Shown here: positions 1,933 through 45,096 of the stretch, piece after piece
How the letters are laid out: the number at the start of each line of letters is the position of its first letter
Position numbering within the stretch: the stretch's first letter is position 1
DNA from: a virus
Strand: one strand, 5' to 3'
IMG/VR virus record: IMGVR_UViG_3300037264_003623
Location: 45,084-109,083 of that record
DNA length: 64,000 nt
Position numbers and translations under genes: made by a program
Notes under the pieces: model-generated
What the model was told of the DNA's origin: nothing
What the model saw: only the letters and a program-made list of their open reading frames with translations
The model's database searches: none

Positions 1933-3258
1933 ATGGAGACGCCGTCGAGCAGGGCCACGAGCAATCTGATTTCCAAGTCCCTGGAGACCGTCCAGGAGAC
2001 GCCGGGCCAGGTGTCCTCGAAGGAGATGCAGGACCTCTCCGCGATGATCCTGAAGGCGATGGACGACCCCGCCTTCGTCGAGACGGTCTGCCCGAGCGGC
2101 GGCTGCCCCGAGCTCCGCGGCCTCCTCCTGGAGGTGGTCGAGCGGGCCAAGGAGGAGGACGACTCCCCCGAGGTCAAGGCGTGCGTCTCGAAGAAGATCC
2201 CGATCCTCATCGAAGAGGGATATCCGAGAGCCCAAAGTGTCGCGATCGCGTTCTCGGTTTGCCGCAAGGACCCGTCCGTCGCCGACAAGGCGGTGAAGGT
2301 CGAGGGGACGCCCCGCTACATGACCGAGGCGGAGCTCCGCGCCATGAAGCCGAAGAAGCCGGAGACCGACACGGACACGGAGATCGAGTCCGCGATCGGG
2401 TGCGATCTCGACGCGCTCAACAGGACGACTTCCGTCCTGATTTCCAAGGCCGGGACCTCTGATGGCGCGAAGCTGGGGTGGGAGACCCGTAGGGGCGGAG
2501 CGCCCACTGATGAACCCAAGGCTGGGATGCCCTCCAGGCAGGAGTGGGATGGGTTCCAATCGAACGCTGATGCGGTATTCGATGTCAGCAGGGGCGCGGT
2601 CAAAGAGGTTGAACGGATCGAGGAGAGGGCCATAGAAGCGGAAGAGGAGGGTAGATCCCGCCTACATCCGTTCGGCGTGAAAGAGCCGACGACGCCGAAG
2701 GGCGTGGAGCAGGCTCTGAACAAGCTGGCGGATGTCGCGCCGAAGGCCGCTGACCTCGCGGCGAGACTGAAAGGCGTCCCTGGGGTGGACGAGGGGAAGA
2801 GGAAGGCCGCTGAGGACAAGATGCGGGGATGGAAAGGTGGGGTGCCCCGTGAGGAGATGCAGGATTTCAACGACATCGTGTCCGACATCTACACGATGGT
2901 AGACAGCGCCAGGGCGGACCATGACCCGAAGTACATGGAGGGGTCCGAGCCCGTGACGCGGCCTTCCGTGGGCAAGGAGCTCGTTCTGAACCTGGGCGTG
3001 CAGAAGCGGTTCTTGTCCCTGCAAGACCTTGAGGGATTCAAGCCGACGAAACCGGAGGACGTCCGCCCGCCACGGGAGAGCACCAGGCACGAGGGCGAGC
3101 CGGAAGACTCGGGGCTTCGTCGCCTCATCATGCCGGGATGGGCCCGAAAGGGCGGCCAGGTTGCGCCTCCCGGTGACGTCCCGAAGGATAGGATCAGGGG
3201 CGATGGCTTGACCGAGATGCTCATGCCGAGCAGGAAAGAGGACGAGCCCAAGGAATAG
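1933..3258 (+). CDS. putative head-cargo protein with ISK|AGTSDGAKLGWETRR tag
   Basis: RBS AGGAGG; CVSKKIPILIEEGYPRAQSVAIAFSVC head-protein-like segment; tag at 2446-2493. Confidence 0.7.
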   Translation: METPSSRATSNLISKSLETVQETPGQVSSKEMQDLSAMILKAMDDPAFVETVCPSGGCPELRGLLLEVVERAKEEDDSPEVKACVSKKIPILIEEGYPRAQSVAIAFSVCRKDPSVADKAVKVEGTPRYMTEAELRAMKPKKPETDTDTEIESAIGCDLDALNRTTSVLISKAGTSDGAKLGWETRRGGAPTDEPKAGMPSRQEWDGFQSNADAVFDVSRGAVKEVERIEERAIEAEEEGRSRLHPFGVKEPTTPKGVEQALNKLADVAPKAADLAARLKGVPGVDEGKRKAAEDKMRGWKGGVPREEMQDFNDIVSDIYTMVDSARADHDPKYMEGSEPVTRPSVGKELVLNLGVQKRFLSLQDLEGFKPTKPEDVRPPRESTRHEGEPEDSGLRRLIMPGWARKGGQVAPPGDVPKDRIRGDGLTEMLMPSRKEDEPKE

Positions 3259-3273
3259 CGCACACGATGTGCG
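3259..3273. promoter_or_regulatory. 15-bp palindrome CGCACACnGTGTGCG, copy 1 (one mismatch)
   Basis: CGCACACGATGTGCG directly after the TAG of the previous gene. Confidence 0.55.
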
Positions 3274-3292
3274 GAAACCGGAGGAATACCCC

Positions 3293-3976
3293 GTGAAAGA
3301 GCGCAAGGACAAGGACCTGGGCTCGATTTTCAACGCCAAGTCCCTCCTCGACGGGCAGGGGACCCCACAGCGGGACACCGCCCAGAGCAGGAAGGTCGCC
3401 CTGGACTTCGCCGGGATGCTCGCGAAGGATGGCACGAGCGAGGGTGCGAAGAAGGGCTGGGAAACTCGACGCGGCGCGGCAGCCCTGTCCGAGGGCCCCA
3501 AGGAGTTCAGAGACTTCATGGTAGGAGCCATCGCCCAGCGCGACACCCCTGATGCCAAGGCGACGAAGGAGATGGCGGAGAATCTCAAGGACAGTGATGT
3601 TCCCCTGAAGGATGCTTTTACCGCCGCTCAGAAACGGGTTGACCAGGCCGACGCCCTCGCCGGGGAGACCCTCAAGCGGTTCGGCTCCGCCCTTTCCCAG
3701 TATCACGTCGACAACATCAATCGCGAGCGGGAGACGATCAAGCGGGCCATGGATGTCGCCGACAGGCATGTCCGGGAGAACAGCCGGGGGTATGCCGCCG
3801 ACGCCATCAGCAACGCCGTCGAGGGCGCGGACCTCATGTCGATCTGGGCATCTTCCGCGGTCGGAGAAGTCTGGAAAAAGCAGACCCGGGAGAGGGGGGT
3901 GGGGAAGTCCGGCACTTCCGAGGGGGTCCCGAAGACCCTCAAGGGGTCGTTCCTGACCGAAGGCGACACACAATAG
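3293..3976 (+). CDS. putative head-cargo protein with LAK|DGTSEGAKKGWETRR tag and a degenerate second tag
   Basis: GGAGG before GTG 3293; tags at 3425-3472 and 3905-3934. Confidence 0.7.
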   Translation: MKERKDKDLGSIFNAKSLLDGQGTPQRDTAQSRKVALDFAGMLAKDGTSEGAKKGWETRRGAAALSEGPKEFRDFMVGAIAQRDTPDAKATKEMAENLKDSDVPLKDAFTAAQKRVDQADALAGETLKRFGSALSQYHVDNINRERETIKRAMDVADRHVRENSRGYAADAISNAVEGADLMSIWASSAVGEVWKKQTRERGVGKSGTSEGVPKTLKGSFLTEGDTQ

Positions 3977-4001
3977 GTTGCGTTTCCCATCCGGTTCCTT
4001 C

Positions 4002-4029
4002 TTGGCGAATACGCTAAAGGGTGTATAAT
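4002..4029 (+). promoter_or_regulatory. sigma70-type promoter, probably leaderless transcript
   Basis: TTGGCG-16-TATAAT, ATG 6 nt downstream at 4036. Confidence 0.55.
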
Positions 4030-4035
4030 AGGATC

Positions 4036-5598
4036 ATGGAAGTGGGCGCGATCTATGACGTCCAGAAGGAAGGCACCTCCGAGGGTGCCTACCGCGGGTG
4101 GGAGACTAGGAGAGACGGCCCGAGGGCCGCCCCTTTCGTCGAAGCGCGGAGGAAGATTGGGAGCATGGTGGAGGAGGCCAACGAGGAGTTCAAGAGGGAG
4201 GTTGCTCTTCACCTGAAGGGTATCCCGAGCGACTACGCGGGGATGACACGCAGGGACAGGGAGAACAGAGCCGAAGGCCTGAGGCTCGTTCGGGATGCAG
4301 TCGAGAGACTGAGGGGGGCCGAGGTCGCGGAGGCGGACAGGGGTACGCTCGCCAGGATGATCGACTACGCGGAGCGGGAAGCCCCCATCATCAGCGAGCG
4401 CGACAAGGGGGACCGGAGGTGGCACGAGGAGTTCGACGCCTTCCTCGCCGAAGCCGAGGAGGTCGCGTCCAGGGCGAAGGAGCCCGAGGGAATGGAAAAG
4501 GGCGAGGTCGTCGTCTGGGAGCCGAGCAGGCATCCCCGGGGGGAGGGGGGCCGGTTCGCCCAGGCCGAGGCCAGGGATCCCGAGGAGAGGCGGAGGCTGG
4601 TCGAGTCCGCGGCGTCCGAGGCCGCCAGGCGGGTTATCGACAGCATGGGCCGAGACGCGAACAGGGTGATCTACGATACGGTGAGCGAGTTCGGCCTGTC
4701 CGGCAACGACGCGGCCGAGGCGTTCCAGATGGCCGACCGGAGGCTGCGGAAGGAGCGGGAGCTGGATGTGCTCCGCAAGGCCACTGGGGACCTGCTCTCG
4801 AAGGTCGAGTTCGAGGAGGACGAGCACCCGAGGGACCCCGCAGGCAGGTTCGCCTCCAGGGGAGAAGGGGTCGCGCCGAGGGCCGATGCCGTCTCGAAGG
4901 AGGAGATCGACAGGGTGTTCGACGGCAGGGCGAAGAACCCGAGCACGCCCGATGAGCAGAGCCGCCTGCACCAGGAGATCGAGGCCTCGGCGGACAGGGC
5001 GAGTCGGATGTCGCAGGAGGACCACATCTCCGGGGTGCCCGAGAGGATGACCAAGGTATCCGAGAGGGCGGAGGCCGTCGTGATGTCCCTCGGCAGGAGG
5101 ATCATGGAGGAGGGCGCAGCTAACTGGAAGGAGTTCGTCTTCGCGGTGGAGAACGGGAGCGGGGACGTGGTGGGGATGAGGGAGGGCGACAAGGAATCAG
5201 CGTCGTGCGTCGGGATCTACGGGGGGATGGACAGGGATAGGGGATACACGTTCGTCCACAACCATCCCACAAGCAACTCCTTCTCGGACGTGGACGTGAT
5301 CATATTCACTAGGATCCCCCAGTTTACGAGGGCGGTGGTGGTCAGCGGGATGTGGACGTACATTCTGGAGAAGCCGCCGGGGTGGAACTTCAGGAAGGTT
5401 TGGGGCGTGGACGATGCCAGGGCGGAGTACCTCCGCCAGAGCGACGTGCTGACGCCCAAGTACAAGCCCCCCGCCAACCCGGACGGGACGAGGGACGACG
5501 CCAGGGACAGGGTCGCGTGGCGGGAGCAGGGCCATGAGGTGATATCCAACCTGGCGAAGCTCTACGGGCTGTCCTACAGGAGGGAGAAGAGGGCATGA
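4036..5598 (+). CDS. polyprotein-like cargo with three tags and a C-terminal JAB/MPN (RadC-like) domain
   Basis: VQK|EGTSEGAYRGWETRR, MEK|GEVVVWEPSRHPRGEGGRF, LSK|VEFEEDEHPRDPAGRF; then E..HNHPTSNSFSDVD metal motif. Confidence 0.75.
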   Translation: MEVGAIYDVQKEGTSEGAYRGWETRRDGPRAAPFVEARRKIGSMVEEANEEFKREVALHLKGIPSDYAGMTRRDRENRAEGLRLVRDAVERLRGAEVAEADRGTLARMIDYAEREAPIISERDKGDRRWHEEFDAFLAEAEEVASRAKEPEGMEKGEVVVWEPSRHPRGEGGRFAQAEARDPEERRRLVESAASEAARRVIDSMGRDANRVIYDTVSEFGLSGNDAAEAFQMADRRLRKERELDVLRKATGDLLSKVEFEEDEHPRDPAGRFASRGEGVAPRADAVSKEEIDRVFDGRAKNPSTPDEQSRLHQEIEASADRASRMSQEDHISGVPERMTKVSERAEAVVMSLGRRIMEEGAANWKEFVFAVENGSGDVVGMREGDKESASCVGIYGGMDRDRGYTFVHNHPTSNSFSDVDVIIFTRIPQFTRAVVVSGMWTYILEKPPGWNFRKVWGVDDARAEYLRQSDVLTPKYKPPANPDGTRDDARDRVAWREQGHEVISNLAKLYGLSYRREKRA

Positions 5599-14474: not shown

Positions 14475-14546
14475 GCCAGCGTGGCGCAACGGTAGCGCGG
14501 CGGTTTTGTAAATCGCAGGTTGGGAGTTCGAGTCTCCCCGCTGGCT
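14475..14546 (+). tRNA. tRNA-Thr(TGT)
   Basis: Acceptor GCCAGCG/CGCTGGC, loop TT-TGT-AA, TTCGA T-loop. Confidence 0.9.
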
Positions 14547-14662
14547 CTCGGTTTTTTCAGGATTCCTTGCCCAATCCCCGGGTTCTCCGTCATTCCTTGT
14601 CACGGATTCTCGTACATAGGGATGTGAGGGGCGAAGTGAAACGCCCCGAAAGGAGGACGGAG

Positions 14663-14872
14663 ATGGGCAGGTTCTACGACTTTTTCGATGAGGTGGACGG
14701 GATCGGCAACCTAGTCAACGCCGAGGCGATCCTGGGGGAGAGGTACTTCCAGGAGGGGTACAGGGGCAAGGCGCTCCGCCGGAAGGTCCGGTGGGCGATG
14801 ATCATGATCCGGCACATGGATCGGCTCGACATGGCCGACGTTGTCCCCCTCTGGGAGATGGAGGTGGGGTAG
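14663..14872 (+). CDS. hypothetical protein
   Basis: RBS AGGAGG. Confidence 0.65.
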   Translation: MGRFYDFFDEVDGIGNLVNAEAILGERYFQEGYRGKALRRKVRWAMIMIRHMDRLDMADVVPLWEMEVG

Positions 14873-14902
14873 AATGGGAGGTGGACCTTCGGGGGCCGAC
14901 CG

Positions 14903-15073
14903 ATGGAAGACAGAGACAAGCCCTGGTACCACTGGCAGATCCGGTGCCAGGAGGATGGGGACGACGGGTGGACGTGCATCGCTAACATCAACGGGGGCAA
15001 GGCGGGCCCCTGCATGTTCAGGAGCAGGGGTGAGGCGGAGAGGAAGTGCCCCGTCTACAAGCCGGAGGGATGA
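14903..15073 (+). CDS. small hypothetical protein (56 aa)
   Basis: MEDRDKPWYHW...CPVYKPEG* read by eye. Confidence 0.45.
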   Translation: MEDRDKPWYHWQIRCQEDGDDGWTCIANINGGKAGPCMFRSRGEAERKCPVYKPEG

Positions 15074-15097
15074 CCTCCGATTTTTTTTGTTTTCCCC

Positions 15098-15138
15098 CTT
15101 GACGAAAGGGACGAAACGCATATAATATGAGTGTCAAG
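15098..15138 (+). promoter_or_regulatory. conserved early promoter
   Basis: CTTGACG-16-TATAAT-ATGAGTGTCAAG, upstream T-tract. Confidence 0.88.
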
Positions 15139-15154
15139 AGCGAAGGAGATGATG

Positions 15155-15385
15155 ATGGCCGAGACGACGACCCTGACGGCGGAACAGCAGAAGGAGTTCG
15201 TGAGGCTGGTGGGGGCGCTCTCCCCGGAGAACCTGTACTGCGACGGCGAGATCTCGCACGCCCAGGGCGTCAAGAAGTACAAGGCCCTGCGGAAGCAGTG
15301 GTGGGCCCTGGAGATCAGGGTCGGCCGCAAGGTGACCGAGGACGAGGTGTGGGCGGCCCACATGGCCGAGAATCGAAAGGAGTAG
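15155..15385 (+). CDS. hypothetical early protein
   Basis: RBS AAGGAG; LSPENLYCDGEIS. Confidence 0.7.
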   Translation: MAETTTLTAEQQKEFVRLVGALSPENLYCDGEISHAQGVKKYKALRKQWWALEIRVGRKVTEDEVWAAHMAENRKE

Positions 15386-15558
15386 AGGCCCCCTGGAAGA
15401 GGGGAGGGAGGGGCGCTGGCCGATCCGCAGGTAGCCGGTGCCCTATGCTCCGGGGGATGCGGGCCCCTGGCTTGTCCTTCCACGCAGGCCTCCGTCGCCC
15501 CTACGGTGGCGGAGGACCTGCGGGTGGGCTCGGTTCTCCTCTCTTTCAGCGGGCTTCT
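15384..15558 (+). ncRNA. candidate structured ncRNA (multibranch)
   Basis: Closing stem of about 23 bp with G-U pairs plus two internal hairpins; no convincing ORF. Confidence 0.5.
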
Positions 15559-15580
15559 GGGGAAGCGGACAGAAAATGAT

Positions 15581-15727
15581 CTCAGGGGGCCAGCCAGCGC
15601 CGGTTCCCGCCACGGTACTTGGAGTCGTGGGATCGGGGCCGATAAGCGTGGGCCGTGGAGGCCAGCGGCAGGAGGGGGGCCAAGCCTCTGAATGTCGTCG
15701 CGGGTTCGAGGCCCGTCCCTGGGGCCA
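15581..15727 (+). ncRNA. tRNA-like RNA of 147 nt with acceptor stem, T-arm and encoded CCA
   Basis: CTCAGGG/CCCTGGG-G-CCA; GCGGG-TTCGAGG-CCCGT; several hairpins in place of D and anticodon arms. Confidence 0.55.
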
Positions 15728-15875
15728 GATGCGTGGGGGTCATGATGAAGCGGTTCGAGAACAAGGTCGATACCGACGCGGACTGCGTCCGGGCCGGGCC
15801 TCCGATTCCCCCTCCGGGGTGCGAACTCTCGTTCGTGAGGAGGATGGTGGCCTTGTGGCGGGAGAGGAGCAAGCG

Positions 15876-16139
15876 ATGACCGAATCCAAGGGAGAGCCGA
15901 CGGGATTCCTGGCGGGGAAGCGGTACCGCAGGATGGCGCTGGCGCAGCACGTCATGGTGGTCGCCGTGTTCGACCTGGAAGTGGGGGACTGGTCGGCCTA
16001 CATCGACGCCGTGCCGGGGAACGACCACGCGGCGGAGTGGGGGTCCGTGGTGGACCATGGCGACAAGATCCCGAAGGACGTAGCGGCGGTGCTGTTCCCC
16101 GGCCTCGCGGCGGACAAGGGGCTGAAGTGGAGAGAGTGA
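15876..16139 (+). CDS. hypothetical protein
   Basis: RBS AGGAG; DWSAYIDAVPG. Confidence 0.65.
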   Translation: MTESKGEPTGFLAGKRYRRMALAQHVMVVAVFDLEVGDWSAYIDAVPGNDHAAEWGSVVDHGDKIPKDVAAVLFPGLAADKGLKWRE

Positions 16140-16405
16140 CGGAGGAAGAGATGGCCTTGCCGATGGAAGGGGCGAAGCTCGACCTCTGCCGGGAGGCGGT
16201 GAAGACGCTCCCCGAGAGGGCCTGTGCCTACTACGCCGAGAGGTTTCGGCGGGGTTTCATGGAACAACATCGCCCAAGCCCCGACGACGCGGCCCTGGAG
16301 ATCTACCGCTACGCCTTCTTAGGGGAGAAGCCCCCGAGGCGGTTCCGTGAACTGGTCAGGCCGATCCTGGTGGCGTTGAGGTTCGCGGCAGATGGAGATG
16401 ATTGA
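16136..16405 (+). CDS. hypothetical protein
   Basis: GTGA overlap. Confidence 0.55.
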   Translation: MTEEEMALPMEGAKLDLCREAVKTLPERACAYYAERFRRGFMEQHRPSPDDAALEIYRYAFLGEKPPRRFRELVRPILVALRFAADGDD

Positions 16406-16658
16406 GATCCTGCGGCGGCTGGGTACCGTCGAGAAGAGGAAGGGGGGAGTCCTGCGAGACGGGATGCAGATAGGGATGATCCGTCTTGTTCTTTTCTCGG
16501 ACGGGAGCGGGGAGGTGCAGGCGGACTGGGCCAAGTATGACGAGGAAATGTGCCGGGAGGAGAAACTTCTTCATGCGATATTCTCGGTCGACGGTCCTAT
16601 CTTCGAGTTTGAGAAGATCGAGCAGTTAGAGGCGTGGCTGGTGGAGCAGAGCGGATGA
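16398..16658 (+). CDS. hypothetical protein
   Basis: ORF track, coupled genes. Confidence 0.55.
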   Translation: MIEILRRLGTVEKRKGGVLRDGMQIGMIRLVLFSDGSGEVQADWAKYDEEMCREEKLLHAIFSVDGPIFEFEKIEQLEAWLVEQSG

Positions 16659-16942
16659 ATGAGCATGGAGGGCCGGACTCGAAGGTGATGTCCAGGTGGG
16701 AGGAGTGCTACTTCGCCGCCAAGGATCTCCCGTCGTTTGTCTGCGTCCGTCTTGCCAGGAGGACTCGGGCGAGGATGAACTGGACGGCGGGGGGGTCGAC
16801 GGAGAGCGTTGCGGCCTCGGAGATCTACGCGATCGCCTTCGAGGGGGTTCCGATCCTTCGTAGCGTCGAGGAGCATCTTCAGCCGGTCCTCGACCGGCTC
16901 AGGGCGTTGCAAGTGGCCGAGAGGATGATGGGCGATGAGTAG
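16655..16942 (+). CDS. hypothetical protein with C-terminal VAERMMG tag
   Basis: ATGA overlap; ends LQVAERMMGDE. Confidence 0.6.
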   Translation: MNEHGGPDSKVMSRWEECYFAAKDLPSFVCVRLARRTRARMNWTAGGSTESVAASEIYAIAFEGVPILRSVEEHLQPVLDRLRALQVAERMMGDE

Positions 16943-17171
16943 AGACCTCAAGTGCAGGACATGCGGGGAGTGGATGAAGGAGATTGCCTGTCACGAGGAC
17001 TCCAACGCTCGCGACTGGATCACGATGTGGTGCCCGGAGTGCGGGACCATCTGCGGATCCTTCGAGTCGGTGTCAGGTCCGCAGGATTACCACTGGGAGT
17101 TCCCGAAGATGGCATCCCTCCCCGAGGTCGGGGCCGCACTTTCTCTCATGCGTGACAGGAACAAGGGTTGA
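16935..17171 (+). CDS. zinc-ribbon protein
   Basis: CRTC...CPECG. Confidence 0.65.
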   Translation: MSRDLKCRTCGEWMKEIACHEDSNARDWITMWCPECGTICGSFESVSGPQDYHWEFPKMASLPEVGAALSLMRDRNKG

Positions 17172-17195
17172 CGGAGAGGCGAAACCGCCTATAAT
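17168..17195 (+). promoter_or_regulatory. promoter of the tRNA cluster
   Basis: TTGACG-16-TATAAT. Confidence 0.75.
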
Positions 17196-17377
17196 AGGGT
17201 CATGAAGATCGGTGCTGACATCCGCGAGGGAAACCGGGGGGCGGCCACGCTCCTCTGGTCCAGCACCACGCCAACATCATGCCTTAGCTTCCACTACCCG
17301 CTGTCCTTGTAGGGCCGCCAGGCCTCTTCGACTCGGTTCCTTGGTCTGGCGGCGGAAACCCCTTCGGGAACCACTGC

Positions 17378-17462
17378 GGGCAGGTCGGATAGCGGCAAGT
17401 CCACCTGGCTGTAAACCAGGCGCCTCAGGCTTACGTGAGTTCGAGTCTCACCCTGCCCACCA
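17378..17462 (+). tRNA. tRNA-Tyr(GTA)
   Basis: GGGCAGG/CCTGCCC, CCTGG-CTGTAAA-CCAGG, long variable arm, CCA. Confidence 0.92.
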
Positions 17463-17537
17463 CGCGCTGTGGCCCAGTCTGGCTAGGGCGCCTGCTTCGG
17501 GAGCAGGAAAACGCCGGTTCGATTCCGGCCAGCGCGA
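17463..17537 (+). tRNA. tRNA-Pro(CGG)
   Basis: CGCGCTG/CAGCGCG, CCTGC-TTCGGGA-GCAGG. Confidence 0.9.
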
Positions 17538-17538
17538 T

Positions 17539-17615
17539 GCTGGGATAGCTCAGACGGTAGTAGCACTGGACTGAAAATCCAGGTGTCGCCGGTTCGATTC
17601 CGGCTCCCAGCGCCA
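17539..17615 (+). tRNA. tRNA-Phe(GAA)
   Basis: GCTGGGA/TCCCAGC, CTGGA-CTGAAAA-TCCAG, CCA. Confidence 0.9.
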
Positions 17616-17703
17616 GCGGAAGTGGCGGAACGGCTAACGCACCCGGTTCAAGGCCGGGCGGCTCGAAAGGGCCTTGCGGGTTCGAGTCCCGCCTTCCGCA
17701 CCA
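17616..17703 (+). tRNA. tRNA-Leu(CAA)
   Basis: GCGGAAG/CTTCCGC, CCCGG-TTCAAGG-CCGGG, long variable arm, CCA. Confidence 0.9.
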
Positions 17704-17787
17704 GGGCGAGTGGTGGAGTTGGCAGACACCTGTGTTTGAGGGGCACAGGCCCGAAAGGGCATGCGGGTTCGACCCCCGCCTCGCCCA
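17704..17787 (+). tRNA. tRNA-Leu(GAG)
   Basis: GGGCGAG/CTCGCCC, loop TTGAGGG, variable arm GCCCGAAAGGGC. Confidence 0.85.
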
Positions 17788-17789
17788 TT

Positions 17790-17821
17790 GCCGGGGTGGT
17801 GAAGTTGGCAGACGCGCTGGC
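17790..17821 (+). tRNA. 5' half of a split tRNA-Leu(GAG)
   Basis: GCCGGGG, D-arm and CTGGC; pairs perfectly with the 3' half at 18501..18555. Confidence 0.8.
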
Positions 17822-17823
17822 AT

Positions 17824-17907
17824 GTTGGAGTGGCGTAATGGCTAACGCACCGGACTCAGGATCCGGGTCCGAAAGGACACCTGTGGGTTCGACTCCCACC
17901 TCCGACA
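17824..17907 (+). tRNA. tRNA-Leu(CAG), nested inside the split tRNA
   Basis: GTTGGAG/CTCCGAC, CCGGA-CTCAGGA-TCCGG. Confidence 0.88.
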
Positions 17908-17915
17908 TTAAAGAC

Positions 17916-17944
17916 TTGGCAGACTCATAGGAACGGGTTATAAT
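17916..17944 (+). promoter_or_regulatory. promoter of the HNH gene
   Basis: TTGGCA-17-TATAAT, RBS AGGAGG downstream. Confidence 0.65.
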
Positions 17945-17970
17945 ATGTCGTCCAAGTAGGAGGACGACAG

Positions 17971-18504
17971 ATGAGAAGGGAAGAGGATCTGCGAAGGGTG
18001 GTTTCCGAGTGCGTGTCTTTTGCCCAGGTTCTTCGACGTTTGGGATTGAAGCAGGCTGGCGGAAGTCAGAGCGAGTTGAAGAAGAGGGTGGAGGCGCTCG
18101 GGATAAGCACAAGTCATTTCCTTGGCAGGAGGACGAACTCGGGGGCGCACCATCGCGGCGGGTGCCCCAAGAAGGCTTGCTCGGAGGTATTGGTTCGTAG
18201 CGTGAGGCGGCATCCCTACCTTCTTCGCCGGGCCTTGCTCGAATCGGGGAGGGAGTACCGCTGCCAAGGAGACGGTTGCCCGGTAAGGGATGAATGGCTT
18301 GGGAAGAAGATCGTCTTGCAGGTGGATCACGTTGATGGAGACAGGAGCAACAATAGGGCTTCCAACCTTCGATTCCTTTGCCCCAACTGTCATTCGCAGA
18401 CAGGCAACTGGGGAAAGAACGAAGGGGGAACGGATCTGACCACTAACGCGAGGCAGTGCCAGAACTGGAGACGGAAACGCCGGGAAGCATCGGGCACGGT
18501 TTGA
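17971..18504 (+). mobile_element. HNH homing endonuclease in the tRNA cluster
   Basis: LQVDHVDGDRSNNRASNLRFLCPNCHSQT; N-terminal SFAQVLRRLGL domain. Confidence 0.9.
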
Positions 18505-18555
18505 GGAGCCAGTGCCCGAAAGGGCGTGCGAGTTCGACCCTCGCCCCCGGCACCA
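18501..18555 (+). tRNA. 3' half of the split tRNA-Leu(GAG)
   Basis: TTGAGGA-GCCAG, variable arm, GCGAG-TTCGACC-CTCGC, CCCCGGC-A-CCA. Confidence 0.8.
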
Positions 18556-18556
18556 T

Positions 18557-18630
18557 GTGGTCGTGGTCCAGCGGTAGGGCGCTTGGTTGTGCCCCAAGAG
18601 ATGGCGGTTCGACTCCGCCCGATCACCCCA
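18557..18630 (+). tRNA. tRNA-His(GTG)
   Basis: GTGGTCG/CGATCAC, CTTGG-TTGTGCC-CCAAG, C73, CCA. Confidence 0.85.
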
Positions 18631-18706
18631 GCCCTCGTAGCTCAGTTGGTAGAGCGGCGCTTTCGTAAAGCGCAGGCCGCAGGTCCGATGCCTGCCGGGG
18701 GCTCCA
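18631..18706 (+). tRNA. tRNA-Thr(CGT)
   Basis: GCCCTCG/CGGGGGC, GCGCT-TTCGTAA-AGCGC, CCA; T-loop TCCGATG. Confidence 0.85.
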
Positions 18707-23579: not shown

Positions 23580-23908
23580 TCGAGCAGGGCGAGCCGGTGA
23601 AGGCAAGGTTCGGGAGGACCGCGCCTGTCGGGGATGGGTGGGTCTACGGGTGCATCGTCTGCAAAGTCAGGCCGAGAACCCTGACGATATGCAAGTGTCT
23701 CTCCGACGGGAACGAGTACGCCTTGTGCTTCCCGTGCCTGGACGCGATGGGCGACCTCGGGATGGTCGAGGAGAGGATCGAGACATACGTCTAGGAGTCC
23801 GGCAACAACTTCACTTTGAGGCATACGACGACAGTCAACAAGCACGACCTGACCCGGTGTCCAAGGGACGAGGGCCTCCGGGCGGCGGTCATGCTGGCGA
23901 GGCGGTGA
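23576..23908 (+). pseudogene. Cys-rich paralog interrupted by in-frame TAG at 23792
   Basis: Reading through TAG gives CPRDEGLRAAVMLARR*, matching the CP+tag ends of the next three genes. Confidence 0.6.
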
Positions 23909-23909
23909 G

Positions 23910-23924
23910 CGCACACCGTGTGCG
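23910..23924. promoter_or_regulatory. 15-bp palindrome CGCACACCGTGTGCG, copy 3
   Basis: Perfect palindrome just after TGA 23908. Confidence 0.6.
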
Positions 23925-24187
23925 CGGATCAGAGGAAGTGCGGGTACTGCGGAATGACGGGCGATCGGCGCACACGGTGGAAGATGTTCCAGTGCTCGTG
24001 CGGGAAGATCCACTACTTCTGCGAGCTCTGCTACAGGGACCTCCTGAGCAAGGGGATCATCGTCCGCAGGGGGCGGAGGGGCGGGGGGAAGAAGGACTTC
24101 CTGAAGGCGTGCCCGGCGGAGGTCCGTGTCGCCGAGGCGATTATGCGGGAGAACCGCAGGGTGGACTGGGAGGTCACGAACCTGTGA
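23918..24187 (+). CDS. Cys-rich tandem paralog
   Basis: CGYC..CSCG..CELC..CPAEVRVAEAIMR. Confidence 0.65.
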   Translation: MCADQRKCGYCGMTGDRRTRWKMFQCSCGKIHYFCELCYRDLLSKGIIVRRGRRGGGKKDFLKACPAEVRVAEAIMRENRRVDWEVTNL

Positions 24188-24402
24188 TCTGCGATCTATG
24201 CAAGACGGCTTTCATCTCCAGGGGGTCGGTTCGGGACCTCCAGTGCGGGTGCGGGAGCGTCTACCGGGCGTGCCTGACGTGCAGGCGTGCCCTGCTGAGG
24301 CAGGACTTCGCCTACTACGAGGGCAAGGGGATGGTCCTCAAGATATGCCCGACGGCATTAGAGGTCGCCCAGAGGCTGATGGATGGTGGGGACGGCGGAT
24401 GA
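24184..24402 (+). CDS. Cys-rich tandem paralog
   Basis: CDLC..CGCG..CLTC..CPTALEVAQRLMDG. Confidence 0.65.
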   Translation: MICDLCKTAFISRGSVRDLQCGCGSVYRACLTCRRALLRQDFAYYEGKGMVLKICPTALEVAQRLMDGGDGG

Positions 24403-24650
24403 GCGAGTCTCTATGCGTGATCTGCGGGAAGGGGCAGTACCAGCCCGACGAGCAGGGGGGGTACATCGGGATGCGCGACGTGTTGTGCGCGTGCGGGGAT
24501 GTCCACCGCGTCTGCAAGCGGTGCTGGACGAACCCCGGGAGCAAAGTCCTGGCCGAGGCGTTCTCCTGGGATTCCAAAACCTGGATGGGGGACGCCAAGT
24601 TCGACGTGTGCCCGAAGGATATTCTGGTGGCCTGGAGGTTGATGGGATGA
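24399..24650 (+). CDS. Cys-rich tandem paralog
   Basis: CVIC..CACG..CKRC..CPKDILVAWRLMG. Confidence 0.65.
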   Translation: MSESLCVICGKGQYQPDEQGGYIGMRDVLCACGDVHRVCKRCWTNPGSKVLAEAFSWDSKTWMGDAKFDVCPKDILVAWRLMG

Positions 24651-24801
24651 TCAGGTTCAAGAAGAGCATGTTCGGGTTAGGGGCCAACTCCTGCGTCTCG
24701 CCGACGAAGGGGACGGCGGACAAATGCGAGGGGTGCCCGGTCAAGGGCCTGGTCGGGATCGTGGTCGTGGTGAAGGTGGGGCCGAGGCCGATCGGGAGGG
24801 G

Positions 24802-25272
24802 ATGATGCCCAGGGAAGACCCGATCCGCGAGTACTTCGAGATCGATCTCCCCGACAAGAGATTCCGTGAGCAGAACGAGCGCCTTCAGCGGAAGATCGAC
24901 GAGGGCATCGGGATGAGGGGGAGTCCGCCGCGTTTGAGGAAGACATGGTGGATCTCCACTCCAGGGATGGATTCCAAACGTGCGTTCGGTCTCTCCGATG
25001 CCATTGAGGCGCTCGACTCCCCGGACATGATCTCGGATATGGGCCACATCCCTCTGGTCCGGTGGAGCGGGTGTTTGTGGCACCTGATGGTTTCCTCCCA
25101 CTGCAACCCGGCCAGGGTGGTGTCGGCGTGCGGAGAAACCTTCCCGATGGGAGAGAGGGTGGAGGGGAAACTGGAGATCGAGCCGAACCGGAACCTGACC
25201 TGCATGGGGTGCTGGACCCACGTCGAGGCGGCCAAGGTCGCCCTGATCCTGGCGGGGGAGAGCGATGAGTGA
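24802..25272 (+). CDS. H-CG-CxxC zinc-finger family protein with C-terminal tag
   Basis: WHLM..SACG..CMGC..VALILAG. Confidence 0.65.
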   Translation: MMPREDPIREYFEIDLPDKRFREQNERLQRKIDEGIGMRGSPPRLRKTWWISTPGMDSKRAFGLSDAIEALDSPDMISDMGHIPLVRWSGCLWHLMVSSHCNPARVVSACGETFPMGERVEGKLEIEPNRNLTCMGCWTHVEAAKVALILAGESDE

Positions 25273-26896
25273 GGCCGACCGCTTCGCCGGATTTCCATCG
25301 CCCTCGTGGGCATCGCCCGCTGGCTGGGCCCGGCTTCACCTGGGGAACTGCGTCGAGGTGATGAGGTCCCTGCCTGAGTCCTCGATCGACGCGATCGTGA
25401 CCGACCCCCCGTATGGTATTGAGTTCATGGGGAGGGATTTCGACAAGTTGGGGCAGGGGCCGCAGATGCAGGAATGGCACCGGGCGTGGGCGGTCGAGGC
25501 TCTTCGAGTGGCTAAACCCGGTGCCTTCCTTCTTGCCTTTGGCGGAACCCGGACTTGGCATCGACTTGCGTGCGCGATTGAGGATGCAGGATGGGAGATC
25601 AGGGATACTCTCATGTGGATGTACGGGCAGGGATTTTCTAAAAGCATGGATGTCTCGAAGGCGATCGATAAGGCGGCGGGGTCTGATCGGGAGAAGATCC
25701 CGGAGGGGAACTCCGTAAAGCGGATGGTGCCGGGGGCGGACCAATACAAGACTAATTCCTGGATCAAAAGCGACGATCACATGTACCAGTCGGGGCGGGA
25801 GGTTCCGGTGACGGAGGCCGCGAGGACTTGGGAGGGCTATGGCACATCGCTAAAACCAGCCTGGGAGCCGGTCGTGGTCGCCCGGAAGCCCCTGGCCGGG
25901 ACGGTGGTTGATAACGTCCTGAAGCACGGGACGGGGGCGCTGAACATCGATGGGACGAGAATCAGGATCGCGCCCACTTCTCAGGATGGCTCTCGTAGTA
26001 GTCCTGATGATAGCATTTGCGACACATGCCCTTCGCGTGAGGTTTCCCATACTGTCCGCAGCGAGGACATTCACATGGAGGCCTCGTCTGCTCCTCAACG
26101 CGACGGTCGTAGCGTCCTTCGACCCAGTGAATCCGAATATGAGATCGAGAATCAATCACGCATAGATTCTCGGGCGAGTCGTCGTCCTTCCTACCGTTTA
26201 GATGATGGACTTGCTCATGCGGAAGAAGAGCCCGACCAAGCATACGTTCAGCAACGACTCGGTGATACCGAGTCTCCCGTCCGTCAACTAAGCAGCAGGT
26301 GTATCCACGCGGGTCTTTCCACATGTTTACATCGTACTACACCACATGTTGAAAGTCAAGGCCGCTTCCCCGCGAACGTGATCCACGACGGGAGCGAGGA
26401 GGTGGTAGGGATGTTCCCCGATCGCAAGACGACCTGGATCGATCCGTCTCATGCGAACAACCGGGGCGGGGATTTCCTGGGGGCTCTTGGGCATCCCGGG
26501 ATGCAGGGGTTCAACGACTCCGGCTCCGCCGCCCGCTTTTTCTACACGTCGAAGGCTGATGCGTCCGAGCGGTGGTTCTACTGCCGGATCTGCCAGGGGG
26601 CCTACCCCGCGTCCGCGGAGCAGGGGCACCACCACGGGAAGGGGCTGGGGAAGTGCCAGCACATCTTTAGACACCCGACCGTGAAGCCCTTGTCTCTATG
26701 CTCTTGGCTCTGCCGCCTCGTCTCGATGCCAGGGGGGAGCGTGATCCTCGATCCGTTCATGGGGTCGGGCTCGACGGGCGTGGCGGCCCTCGTGGAGGGC
26801 CAGCGGTTCGTTGGGGTGGAGATGGACGGGGAGTTCTTCGCCCTATCGGCGGCCCGGGTCGCGGACGCGAAGCGCCAGCCGGGCCTCTTCGACTGA
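25265..26896 (+). CDS. N6-A/N4-C DNA methyltransferase (beta class) with a long in-frame insertion
   Basis: IVTDPPY, LKPAWEP, GRFPAN, HPTVKP, LDPFMGSGSTG. Confidence 0.92.
   Translation: MSEADRFAGFPSPSWASPAGWARLHLGNCVEVMRSLPESSIDAIVTDPPYGIEFMGRDFDKLGQGPQMQEWHRAWAVEALRVAKPGAFLLAFGGTRTWHRLACAIEDAGWEIRDTLMWMYGQGFSKSMDVSKAIDKAAGSDREKIPEGNSVKRMVPGADQYKTNSWIKSDDHMYQSGREVPVTEAARTWEGYGTSLKPAWEPVVVARKPLAGTVVDNVLKHGTGALNIDGTRIRIAPTSQDGSRSSPDDSICDTCPSREVSHTVRSEDIHMEASSAPQRDGRSVLRPSESEYEIENQSRIDSRASRRPSYRLDDGLAHAEEEPDQAYVQQRLGDTESPVRQLSSRCIHAGLSTCLHRTTPHVESQGRFPANVIHDGSEEVVGMFPDRKTTWIDPSHANNRGGDFLGALGHPGMQGFNDSGSAARFFYTSKADASERWFYCRICQGAYPASAEQGHHHGKGLGKCQHIFRHPTVKPLSLCSWLCRLVSMPGGSVILDPFMGSGSTGVAALVEGQRFVGVEMDGEFFALSAARVADAKRQPGLFD
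25962..26324 (-). mobile_element. HNH endonuclease embedded antisense inside the methyltransferase ORF
   Basis: HRVVAERMLGRAL..VHHLNGRKDDDSPENL..H...H plus C-terminal CPRC..CRKC; lower GC. Confidence 0.85.
26331..26359 (-). promoter_or_regulatory. promoter of the antisense HNH (leaderless)
   Basis: TTGACT-17-TACGAT-6-ATG on the minus strand; AACATGTGG repeated twice. Confidence 0.7.
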
Positions 26897-26992
26897 GACA
26901 TCCCCGTCGGATTTCGGGAAAGAATCTCGCCGGTTCGCCGTAAGTCATTCCCTGTCAACCGATAAAAACTTGCGGGGGAAAACGGATTTCCC

Positions 26993-27033
26993 CTTGACGA
27001 AAGGGACGAAACGTATATAATATGGGTGTCAAG
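26993..27033 (+). promoter_or_regulatory. conserved early promoter
   Basis: CTTGACG-16-TATAAT-ATGGGTGTCAAG. Confidence 0.88.
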
Positions 27034-27049: not shown

Positions 27050-27544
27050 ATGAGCGAGACGATGACGAGAAGCGGCCTGGTGGACCTGATCAACGCCAAG
27101 GGCGGCGCCTTCCCGGTGGGGCTCCTCACGAAGACCCAGCCGAAGGTCCGCAAGACCGGCAACCCCTACCCCGAGATCAGCCGGGTCACCCGGCGCAACA
27201 TGTTCCTCGGCGCCTCCTACGAGTCCTGCGTGAACAACAAGCAGGAGCGGCAGGGCGGAGAGCGGGACTTCGAGGCCGAGTCCCTTCCCTGGGGCGAGCA
27301 CAGGGGCCGGTTCCTCATCGAGCATAAGGGCAAGACCTACCTCGCCGCCTACCCGGTCGCGAGCGGCTGCCACGGCGAGGACAAGTGGATCACCCCGGAC
27401 GGGGTCGAGGTGGACTTCTCCGTGGTCGAGCCCTTCCTTCCCAAGTCGAACGAGCCCAAGTCGGGCGTGGCCTGGAGGACGATCGCCCTGGAGAACATCC
27501 TGGAGGTCTCCCTCGACGGGCGGACGATCACCCTGGTCGGCTAA
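27050..27544 (+). CDS. hypothetical early protein
   Basis: RBS GGAGG; KTGNPY..YE..VN..LPWG. Confidence 0.75.
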   Translation: MSETMTRSGLVDLINAKGGAFPVGLLTKTQPKVRKTGNPYPEISRVTRRNMFLGASYESCVNNKQERQGGERDFEAESLPWGEHRGRFLIEHKGKTYLAAYPVASGCHGEDKWITPDGVEVDFSVVEPFLPKSNEPKSGVAWRTIALENILEVSLDGRTITLVG

Positions 27545-45079: not shown

Positions 45080-45096
45080 TCCGAAGGAGAACAGCG

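Follow-up and report, generated by a model that had tools for sequence, protein, structure and literature searches.

Homing endonuclease genes are thought to persist in essential or useful genes inside self-splicing introns or inteins, which conceal them. Here we investigate a predicted homing-type endonuclease gene of the HNH_3 family that lies antisense within an unbroken DNA methyltransferase (methylase) gene of a virus. The whole stretch of DNA analysed, referred to as the window, is 64,000 nucleotides long and covers positions 45,084 to 109,083 of the 109-kb IMG/VR virus record IMGVR_UViG_3300037264_003623, from a sediment metagenome. The closest described systems are found in mycobacteriophages. 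A stop-free insertion in the mycobacteriophage methylase gp65 was reported and left unexplained (Gosselin et al. 2023, PMC9957025). The insertion in the ShiLan methylase was shown to hide an HNH gene on the same strand and out of frame, and it was proposed that the methylase is read through the insertion as a loop (Arsenault, Gosselin and Gogarten 2025, PMC11855218). The ShiLan HNH gene begins with a GTG start, 18 bp inside the inserted DNA, and its translation from the methylase mRNA was left unexplained (PMC11855218). ShiLan suggested a third route into useful genes, that of the harmless translated loop. The antisense form described here adds a plausible independent route of expression.

The original prediction for this locus, made from the window alone, was of an HNH gene with its own promoter hidden antisense in an unbroken methylase frame, within about 400 nt of lower-GC DNA between the motifs NIDGTRI and GRFPAN. 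The list of open reading frames (ORFs) and the matches to PF01555 and PF13392 agree on this arrangement. Between the last base of the NIDGTRI codons, 25963, and the first of GRFPAN, 26363, there are 399 nt (133 codons), and the GC content is 0.50–0.57 over 25940–26360, as against 0.63–0.70 in the flanks. The features of the locus, in window coordinates and with their evidence, are as follows.

25265..26896, + strand: uninterrupted beta-class N6/N4 DNA methyltransferase ORF, 543 aa (ORF list, PF01555, phrog_67, AlphaFold2 (AF2), Foldseek).
25265..25963, + strand: N-terminal part of the methyltransferase, from DPPY to NIDGTRI; left flank of the insertion (alignments A1 and A4).
25964..26362, no strand assigned: inserted lower-GC cassette of 399 nt, which replaces the native variable loop (GC profile, loop lengths of homologues).
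25962..26324, − strand: nested antisense gene for an HNH_3 endonuclease of 120 aa (stop codon included in the coordinates) that ends in an A20-like zinc finger, CxxC...CxxC (PF13392, PHROG, AF2).
26331..26359, − strand: predicted sigma-70-like promoter of the HNH gene, in a leaderless layout (consensus scan, 9/12 matches).
26363..26896, + strand: C-terminal part of the methyltransferase, from GRFPAN to the FMGSGS S-adenosylmethionine (SAM)-binding motif; right flank of the insertion (alignments A1 and A4).

This locus shares much with ShiLan. The methylase family is the same, and ShiLan-type phages are among the matches (H18, H19; L002, L003). The nucleases both belong to HNH_3, with 41–52% identity over the core. 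In both, the host frame has no stops, there is no intron or intein signature, the inserted peptide is disordered and the distribution is disjunct, and in both the second position of the host codon falls on the wobble position of the HNH codon. The two differ in strand and site. The ShiLan HNH gene shares the strand of the methylase but is read in a shifted frame, whereas that of the window is on the opposite strand, starts with ATG and has its own conserved, predicted promoter. The ShiLan site is between duplicated EPxxxAxKP segments, whereas the window site is the loop between NIDxxR[IV] and GRxPxN. What is new relative to ShiLan is the opposite strand, the different site and the promoter; the idea of read-through is already published (PMC11855218). 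The antisense form is not mentioned in PMC9957025 or PMC11855218, and none was found in full-text literature searches.

The same arrangement recurs in other genomes. When the HNH protein was compared with phage genomes using tblastn, the best match was in Mycobacterium phage MKC-IRE-02 (58% identity, full length), where the HNH gene lies antisense within an annotated 517-aa methyltransferase coding sequence, between its N- and C-terminal halves. HNH pattern scans identified further carriers in IMG/VR (L004 and L005) and in metagenomes (L060–L067, L069 and L108). In these L-numbered loci the HNH gene is again antisense and flanked by methylase sequence, with both halves present where the contig extends that far. 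The carriers, 14 loci including the window, represent about 11 lineages, between which the HNH nucleotide identity is ~54–76%; values of 100% nucleotide identity obtained for L067 arose from free end gaps and were disregarded as artefacts. The 13 other carriers were located by HNH similarity alone, so that it made no difference to the search whether the methylase frame was open or closed. That frame is open across the HNH gene in 14/14 carriers, and the register of the overlap is identical in all of them. The original prediction had named + strand stops in related insertions as evidence that would count against it; there are none in 13/13 other carriers. The junctions were read in ten carriers. 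At the loop between NIDxxR[IV] and GRxPxN, here called site A, the motif was read in eight carriers, with the HNH stop 0–30 nt after the NIDxxR[IV] codons, and the junction motif gave no reading for L061 and L062.

In the shared register, the middle base of a methylase codon lies opposite the wobble base of an HNH codon. By this geometry, a stop arises in the methylase frame only if an HNH codon NTT, NTC or NCT precedes a codon starting with A. The carrier HNH ORFs have 0 stops in this register, 0–4 in the codon-aligned antisense frame and 4–13 in the third antisense frame. As controls we used 121 HNH_3 relatives without an adjoining match to this methylase. These have 2.3–5.7 stops per 100 codons in the carrier register and are stop-free in only 12/121 cases (Fisher P 2.5e-12), and those of similar GC average ~4 stops per 100 codons. 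Over the 1579 codons of the carriers ~50 stops would be expected and 0 are observed. The GC of the carrier HNH ORFs is only 0.43–0.65, and GC bias therefore does not explain the open frame. As the cause it was rejected on the carrier GC, the controls and the expected-stop count.

The codon contexts show how the stops are avoided. Taking one locus for each of the 11 lineages and pooling them, at-risk contexts number 4.9 per 100 codons in carriers and 9.0 in controls (P 1e-7). Where such a context does occur in a carrier, it is made safe by the choice of synonymous codon in 61/61 cases, while 40% are unsafe in the controls (P 2.6e-11). Phe followed by a codon beginning with A has zero occurrences in the 11 carrier lineages. 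The window has four at-risk sites, which use CTA, GTG, ACG and GCG. When the synonymous codons of the window HNH gene are shuffled, the + frame is open in 2% of trials (P of 0 stops, 0.02), and the same shuffle is weak for each locus alone (P 0.02–0.7 across loci). The window by itself is only suggestive, and it is the comparison with the other carriers and the controls that makes the case. On these codon comparisons, stop avoidance, which the original prediction had proposed should be looked for in related insertions, acts on the choice of amino acids as well as on that of synonymous codons, and selection on both strands is indicated across the carriers.

Which of the two frames encodes the conserved protein? 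Identity is higher in the HNH frame than in the methylase frame in 36/36 carrier pairs (mean 56% vs 34%). The conserved protein is the HNH frame, and the methylase frame is kept merely stop-free and is probably benign. The 120-aa HNH product matches PF13392 HNH_3 (E 6e-8; 32.7 bits vs a cut-off of 24.8) and 11 PHROG HNH families, and scores of 32–56 bits to HNH_3 were obtained for six other HNH ORFs, five of them from antisense carriers and one from the ShiLan-type L003. Residues H40, H41, N43, N53, H62 and H66 and the four zinc-finger Cys are invariant in an alignment of nine carriers. The AF2 model has a mean predicted local distance difference test (pLDDT) of 84.6; its best match in the PDB is I-HmuI (1U3E), a weak one (E 6e-3, TM 0.33–0.46). 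A profile of the HNH proteins of four carriers matches A20-type zinc fingers through its C-terminal part in a PDB sequence search, where no HNH chain was matched and only these zinc fingers were. We predict that the protein is a homing-type endonuclease capable of cleavage and homing. A search of 5.8 billion predicted proteins with the HNH sequence gave one weak match. Such nucleases are systematically missing from protein databases because gene callers annotate the methylase alone.

The site of insertion is, by comparison with homologues, a variable and tolerant loop of the methylase, as the original prediction had supposed. Both flanking motifs are present in 116 of the best 120 methylase homologues, and their spacing is 20–59 residues in 112/116. 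The 4/116 exceptions are the window protein and three other long-loop proteins. P0015, with a loop of 130 aa, is likely to be a further carrier; P0012 and P0022 are also long-loop proteins. The loop columns of the homologues have no consensus residue (alignment A4). Among the 80 IMG/VR loci closest to the N-terminal half of the window methylase, the loops are mostly 20–56 residues; two are 4 residues, and the motifs were not found in five.

In the place of this loop the window methylase has a read-through peptide rich in Ser, Arg, Asp and Pro (S22 R16 E12 D11 P9 of 132 residues), which has no Pfam match. Methylase residues 240–363 are modelled at pLDDT 30–36 and without secondary structure, and the peptide is hydrophilic and probably disordered, consistent with the junk loop of the original prediction. 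Across the carriers, V, I, L, F and M make up 2–17% of the methylase-frame peptide, in which S, R, D and P predominate. Hydrophobic residues would amount to 34–41% if the same DNA were read in the codon-aligned antisense frame. The methylase-frame peptide is hydrophilic because the middle base of the methylase codon is the complement of the HNH wobble base, where A is rare.

The genes around it in the window are all read from the + strand, so that an antisense HNH gene needs its own promoter. The promoter of the original prediction corresponds to a −35 TTGACT (26359–26354), a 17-nt spacer and a −10 TACGAT (26336–26331), followed by 6 nt to the ATG. A TANNNT hexamer is found exactly 6 nt upstream of the HNH start in 8/11 carriers, several of which have TTGACT 17 nt upstream of the hexamer. 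L065 and L066 have instead a 29-nt leader with GGAGG or GGGGG. These signals are consistent with a leaderless HNH mRNA made from the predicted promoter in most carriers.

Between the −35 and the −10, at 26345–26353 of the window (− strand), is a conserved core, YTCAACRTK. It is present at matching places in L001, L004, L005 and L060–L066, and the methylase frame reads it as (N/H)VE. This core may have been copied from the native codons preceding GRxPxN, or be a piece of the homing site.

The host gene is a recognizable methylase on both sides of the cassette. The ORF at 25265..26896 has zero stops across the cassette in the ORF listing, and the 543-aa product matches PF01555 N6_N4_Mtase (E 7e-28) and phrog_67 (E 9e-62). 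Its motif order is that of the beta class, with DPPY (motif IV) near the N-terminus and FMGSGS (motif I, FxGxG) near the C-terminus. The N-terminal half has 48–59% identity to the 80 most similar insertion-free IMG/VR loci. Alignment with insertion-free homologues shows the native loop replaced and every invariant residue of the family kept; in the C-terminal part these are G366, R367, P369, N371, D375, D496, G500, S501 and G502, and P497 and F498 are also invariant in a smaller methylase alignment. The window protein deviates at 17/163 highly conserved columns, mostly conservatively, and some insertion-free homologues deviate equally often. The AF2 model, built from a 71-sequence alignment, has a confident core (10-residue blocks at pLDDT 80–97), which matches CcrM, M.BceJIV and M.RsrI in Foldseek (TMt 0.55–0.76 over ~510–535 alignment columns). 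In this model both halves together form one methylase fold.

An additional Cys/His-rich segment (CRIC ... HHH ... C.H) is present in the window methylase at 26570–26680 (+), residues ~436–470. It lies in a second variable region, before HPTVKP, and its predicted confidence is low to moderate.

The distribution of the cassette is scattered. In a maximum likelihood tree of 102 methylases with the loop removed, the carriers require 6–8 changes by parsimony, at least 4 of which are forced by well-supported branches. The window methylase groups with eight insertion-free proteins at 97% support; that of MKC-IRE-02 is sister to a ShiLan-type mycobacteriophage methylase. The HNH cassette is present in 0/80 of the IMG/VR methylase loci most similar to the N-terminal half from the window. 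The disjunct pattern and the foreign GC of the cassette fit repeated invasion by homing.

Insertions into this methylase family are not confined to site A. The antisense HNH gene of L108 is at another, third site, downstream of GRWPAN, and ShiLan-type inserts on the same strand are present among the matches in L002, L003, L119 and L123. The register is common to the antisense cassettes of site A, the antisense cassette of L108 and the same-strand ShiLan inserts. By sequence, the invasions of this one methylase family involve at least three sites and both orientations, and mobile elements have in it a hot spot.

Some members of the family have other insertions or rearrangements. L063 (2965–3516 −, 2387–2911 +) and L108 (2186–2749 +, 3277–3780 −) each contain a ShiLan-type same-strand HNH gene as a second insert beside the antisense one, and their host methylase frames are open throughout both inserts. 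The methylase ORF of L004 (1872–5063, −) contains a second and much longer antisense nested ORF (3228–4460, +), between DPPY and FMGxxWD, with zinc-ribbon repeats, a nuclease-like C-terminal part and a match to phrog_1271 'HNH endonuclease' (E 5.5e-10). The host frame is open across it as well, in a codon-aligned register. Due to this ORF, the pairing of methylase position 2 with the HNH wobble position was dropped as a universal rule and is regarded as a tendency only. P0005, P0032, P0061 and P0100 have an internal tandem duplication of an EPxxxARKP...NIDxCR...GRFPANIIHDGS module (alignment A1). In P0012 (699 aa) a LAGLIDADG domain (PF00961) is present in frame, and an intein-like insert is found in the Starcevich methylase (L002:390–3548).

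We think it likely that these loci carry a mobile, homing-type HNH cassette, and that the host tolerates it because translation of the methylase continues across it. The cassette would consist of a promoter and an HNH_3 ORF with a zinc finger, and would lie antisense in the part of a phage methylase gene that codes for a variable surface loop. With no stop in the methylase frame, the ribosome would read through and produce a full-length methylase, in which a disordered and hydrophilic peptide of ~130 aa takes the place of a native loop of 30–50 aa. The HNH protein would have a separate source, an mRNA of the opposite strand that starts at the sigma-70-like promoter of the cassette and is leaderless in most carriers. 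During co-infection it would presumably cut or nick cassette-free alleles near the sequence coding for NIDxxR[IV], and repair would copy the cassette into them. The HNH frame would be conserved as a protein and the methylase frame would merely be kept free of stops. The original prediction of a selfish endonuclease nested by read-through gains support from the comparison of the carriers.

Several points weigh against this reading. The evidence from the window alone is modest, with P of 0 stops at 0.02 on the codons of the HNH gene itself and 0.18 on the codon usage of the flanks. The carriers are homologous, which makes their lineages less than fully independent. The structural similarity to I-HmuI is weak (E 6e-3). 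The window methylase also has a long terminal branch (1.23 vs a median of 0.35) in the maximum likelihood tree and, with the native loop wholly lost, its activity may be reduced or altered. Finally, the open frame could serve some end other than methylase activity, such as the avoidance of polarity on downstream genes.

Four other explanations were considered, and each is less likely than a homing cassette maintained by read-through. The first develops this last point: the methylase is crippled and its frame is kept open for translation, which spares the downstream genes from Rho-type polarity or mRNA decay or maintains coupled translation. The start of the methylase and the stop of the ORF upstream overlap, the adjacent genes are on the same strand, the methylase is dispensable in related mycobacteriophages (PMC11855218), and the window has lost the native loop and has a long methylase branch. 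We consider this unlikely, as the C-terminal half from the window keeps every invariant catalytic and SAM-binding residue and the read-through peptide is biased to hydrophilic residues. In addition, the C-terminal half is recognizably conserved in all carriers, which therefore indicates selection on the protein and not just on the transit of ribosomes.

It is about equally improbable that the HNH protein is a domesticated partner of the methylase, its expression tied to that of the methylase through convergent or antisense transcription, in a modification-plus-nuclease module that acts in conflicts between phages or between phage and host. This methylase family has HNH_3 genes associated with it in either orientation, at three sites or more, separate HNH genes adjoin the methylase in mycobacteriophages, and the HNH gene is intact with invariant catalytic residues in the carriers. 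However, the HNH gene is sporadic in its distribution. Its absence from the 80 closest loci and its scatter on the tree fit a parasite better, and the GC of the cassette differs from that of the host gene.

Might the insert be removed after all, by atypical splicing of an intron- or intein-like kind or by translational bypassing, with the open frame being incidental? The position in a conserved gene, beside a conserved motif, is like that of introns and inteins, and splicing was also considered by the ShiLan authors (PMC11855218). The evidence makes this very improbable. Intron covariance models gave no match in Rfam (E up to 1, 25200–27000, both strands), and there is no room for an intron core because the HNH ORF fills 363 of the 399 inserted nucleotides and leaves 36. 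The + frame peptide of the cassette has no Hint, intein or LAGLIDADG match in Pfam, and an intein is excluded by chemistry because the junctions are R ... SQ|G and not C/S ... HN|C/S/T. The absence of intein and intron signatures noted in the original prediction is borne out by these results. Further, a spliced element would need neither stop-free frames in 14/14 carriers nor avoidance of stops at the level of codons. Long antisense ORFs are common in GC-rich genomes and the codon shuffles of the window alone (P 0.02–0.18) leave room for a chance 'shadow ORF' in a recently disrupted methylase, but this is the least probable explanation of all given the carrier GC of 0.43–0.65, the 14/14 open frames set against 12/121 controls, the ~50 stops expected with 0 seen and the 61/61 safe codons.

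The window has further features besides the HNH cassette. At ~23600–25270 (+), upstream of the methylase, are at least 4 consecutive small Cys-rich ORFs (CxxC ... CxC ... CxxC) that look like tandem paralogues of a zinc-ribbon protein; two of them had no match when compared with PHROG. A cluster of nine tRNA genes is present at 14475–18703 (+; Rfam RF00005, 42–67 bits). Just downstream of the methylase, at 26994–27021 (+), is a candidate sigma-70 promoter (TTGACG-16-TATAAT, 11/12 matches), which precedes an ORF at 27050–27544 and is overlapped by a terminator-like hairpin on the − strand.

Taken together with ShiLan, these loci may mean that nesting by read-through is a general, splicing-free third way into coding genes that is open to either orientation, a view that we hold tentatively and with some doubt. 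It would comprise several parts. Both strands of one 360-nt stretch would be translated, and the HNH protein would have been reshaped to contain fewer risky dipeptides. The favoured register would let silent sites of the HNH gene remove stops from the host frame and at the same time keep the peptide hydrophilic. The antisense promoter would answer the question of expression raised by ShiLan, and convergent transcription might couple the levels of the HNH protein and the methylase. The antisense form also brings quantitative evidence of long-term selection on two strands, including adaptation of the amino acids of the nuclease to the overlap. It offers a clean natural case of a fully nested antisense coding overlap under dual selection, of a kind for which examples in bacteria and phages are rare and frequently contested.

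Other known systems share parts of this arrangement. Pacc40 gp60 likewise has a nuclease-like ORF hidden in a stop-free insertion of a phage methylase (PMC11855218, section 3.6). It differs in that the methylase is of another family, the ORF is on the same strand and its assignment to HNH is uncertain. I-HmuI (1U3E), the best structural match, is also a small phage HNH endonuclease lodged in a conserved gene at a conserved motif. The I-HmuI gene is on the sense strand inside a self-splicing group I intron, whereas the window has no intron and the host protein would retain the insert. Inteins with homing endonucleases are similar in being stop-free, in-frame insertions in conserved genes with a sporadic distribution. 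Unlike the nuclease of the window, which is on the other strand and without Hint, their endonuclease is in the host frame and is excised by protein splicing. Free-standing homing genes are known from phages, such as seg and mob of T4, and mobE, which splits nrdA in Aeromonas phage Aeh1. These resemble the HNH gene of the window in having their own promoter, in lacking an intron or intein and in being able to land inside a host gene. They are, however, intergenic or split the gene that they enter, whereas the HNH gene of the window is wholly nested and the host ORF is continuous.

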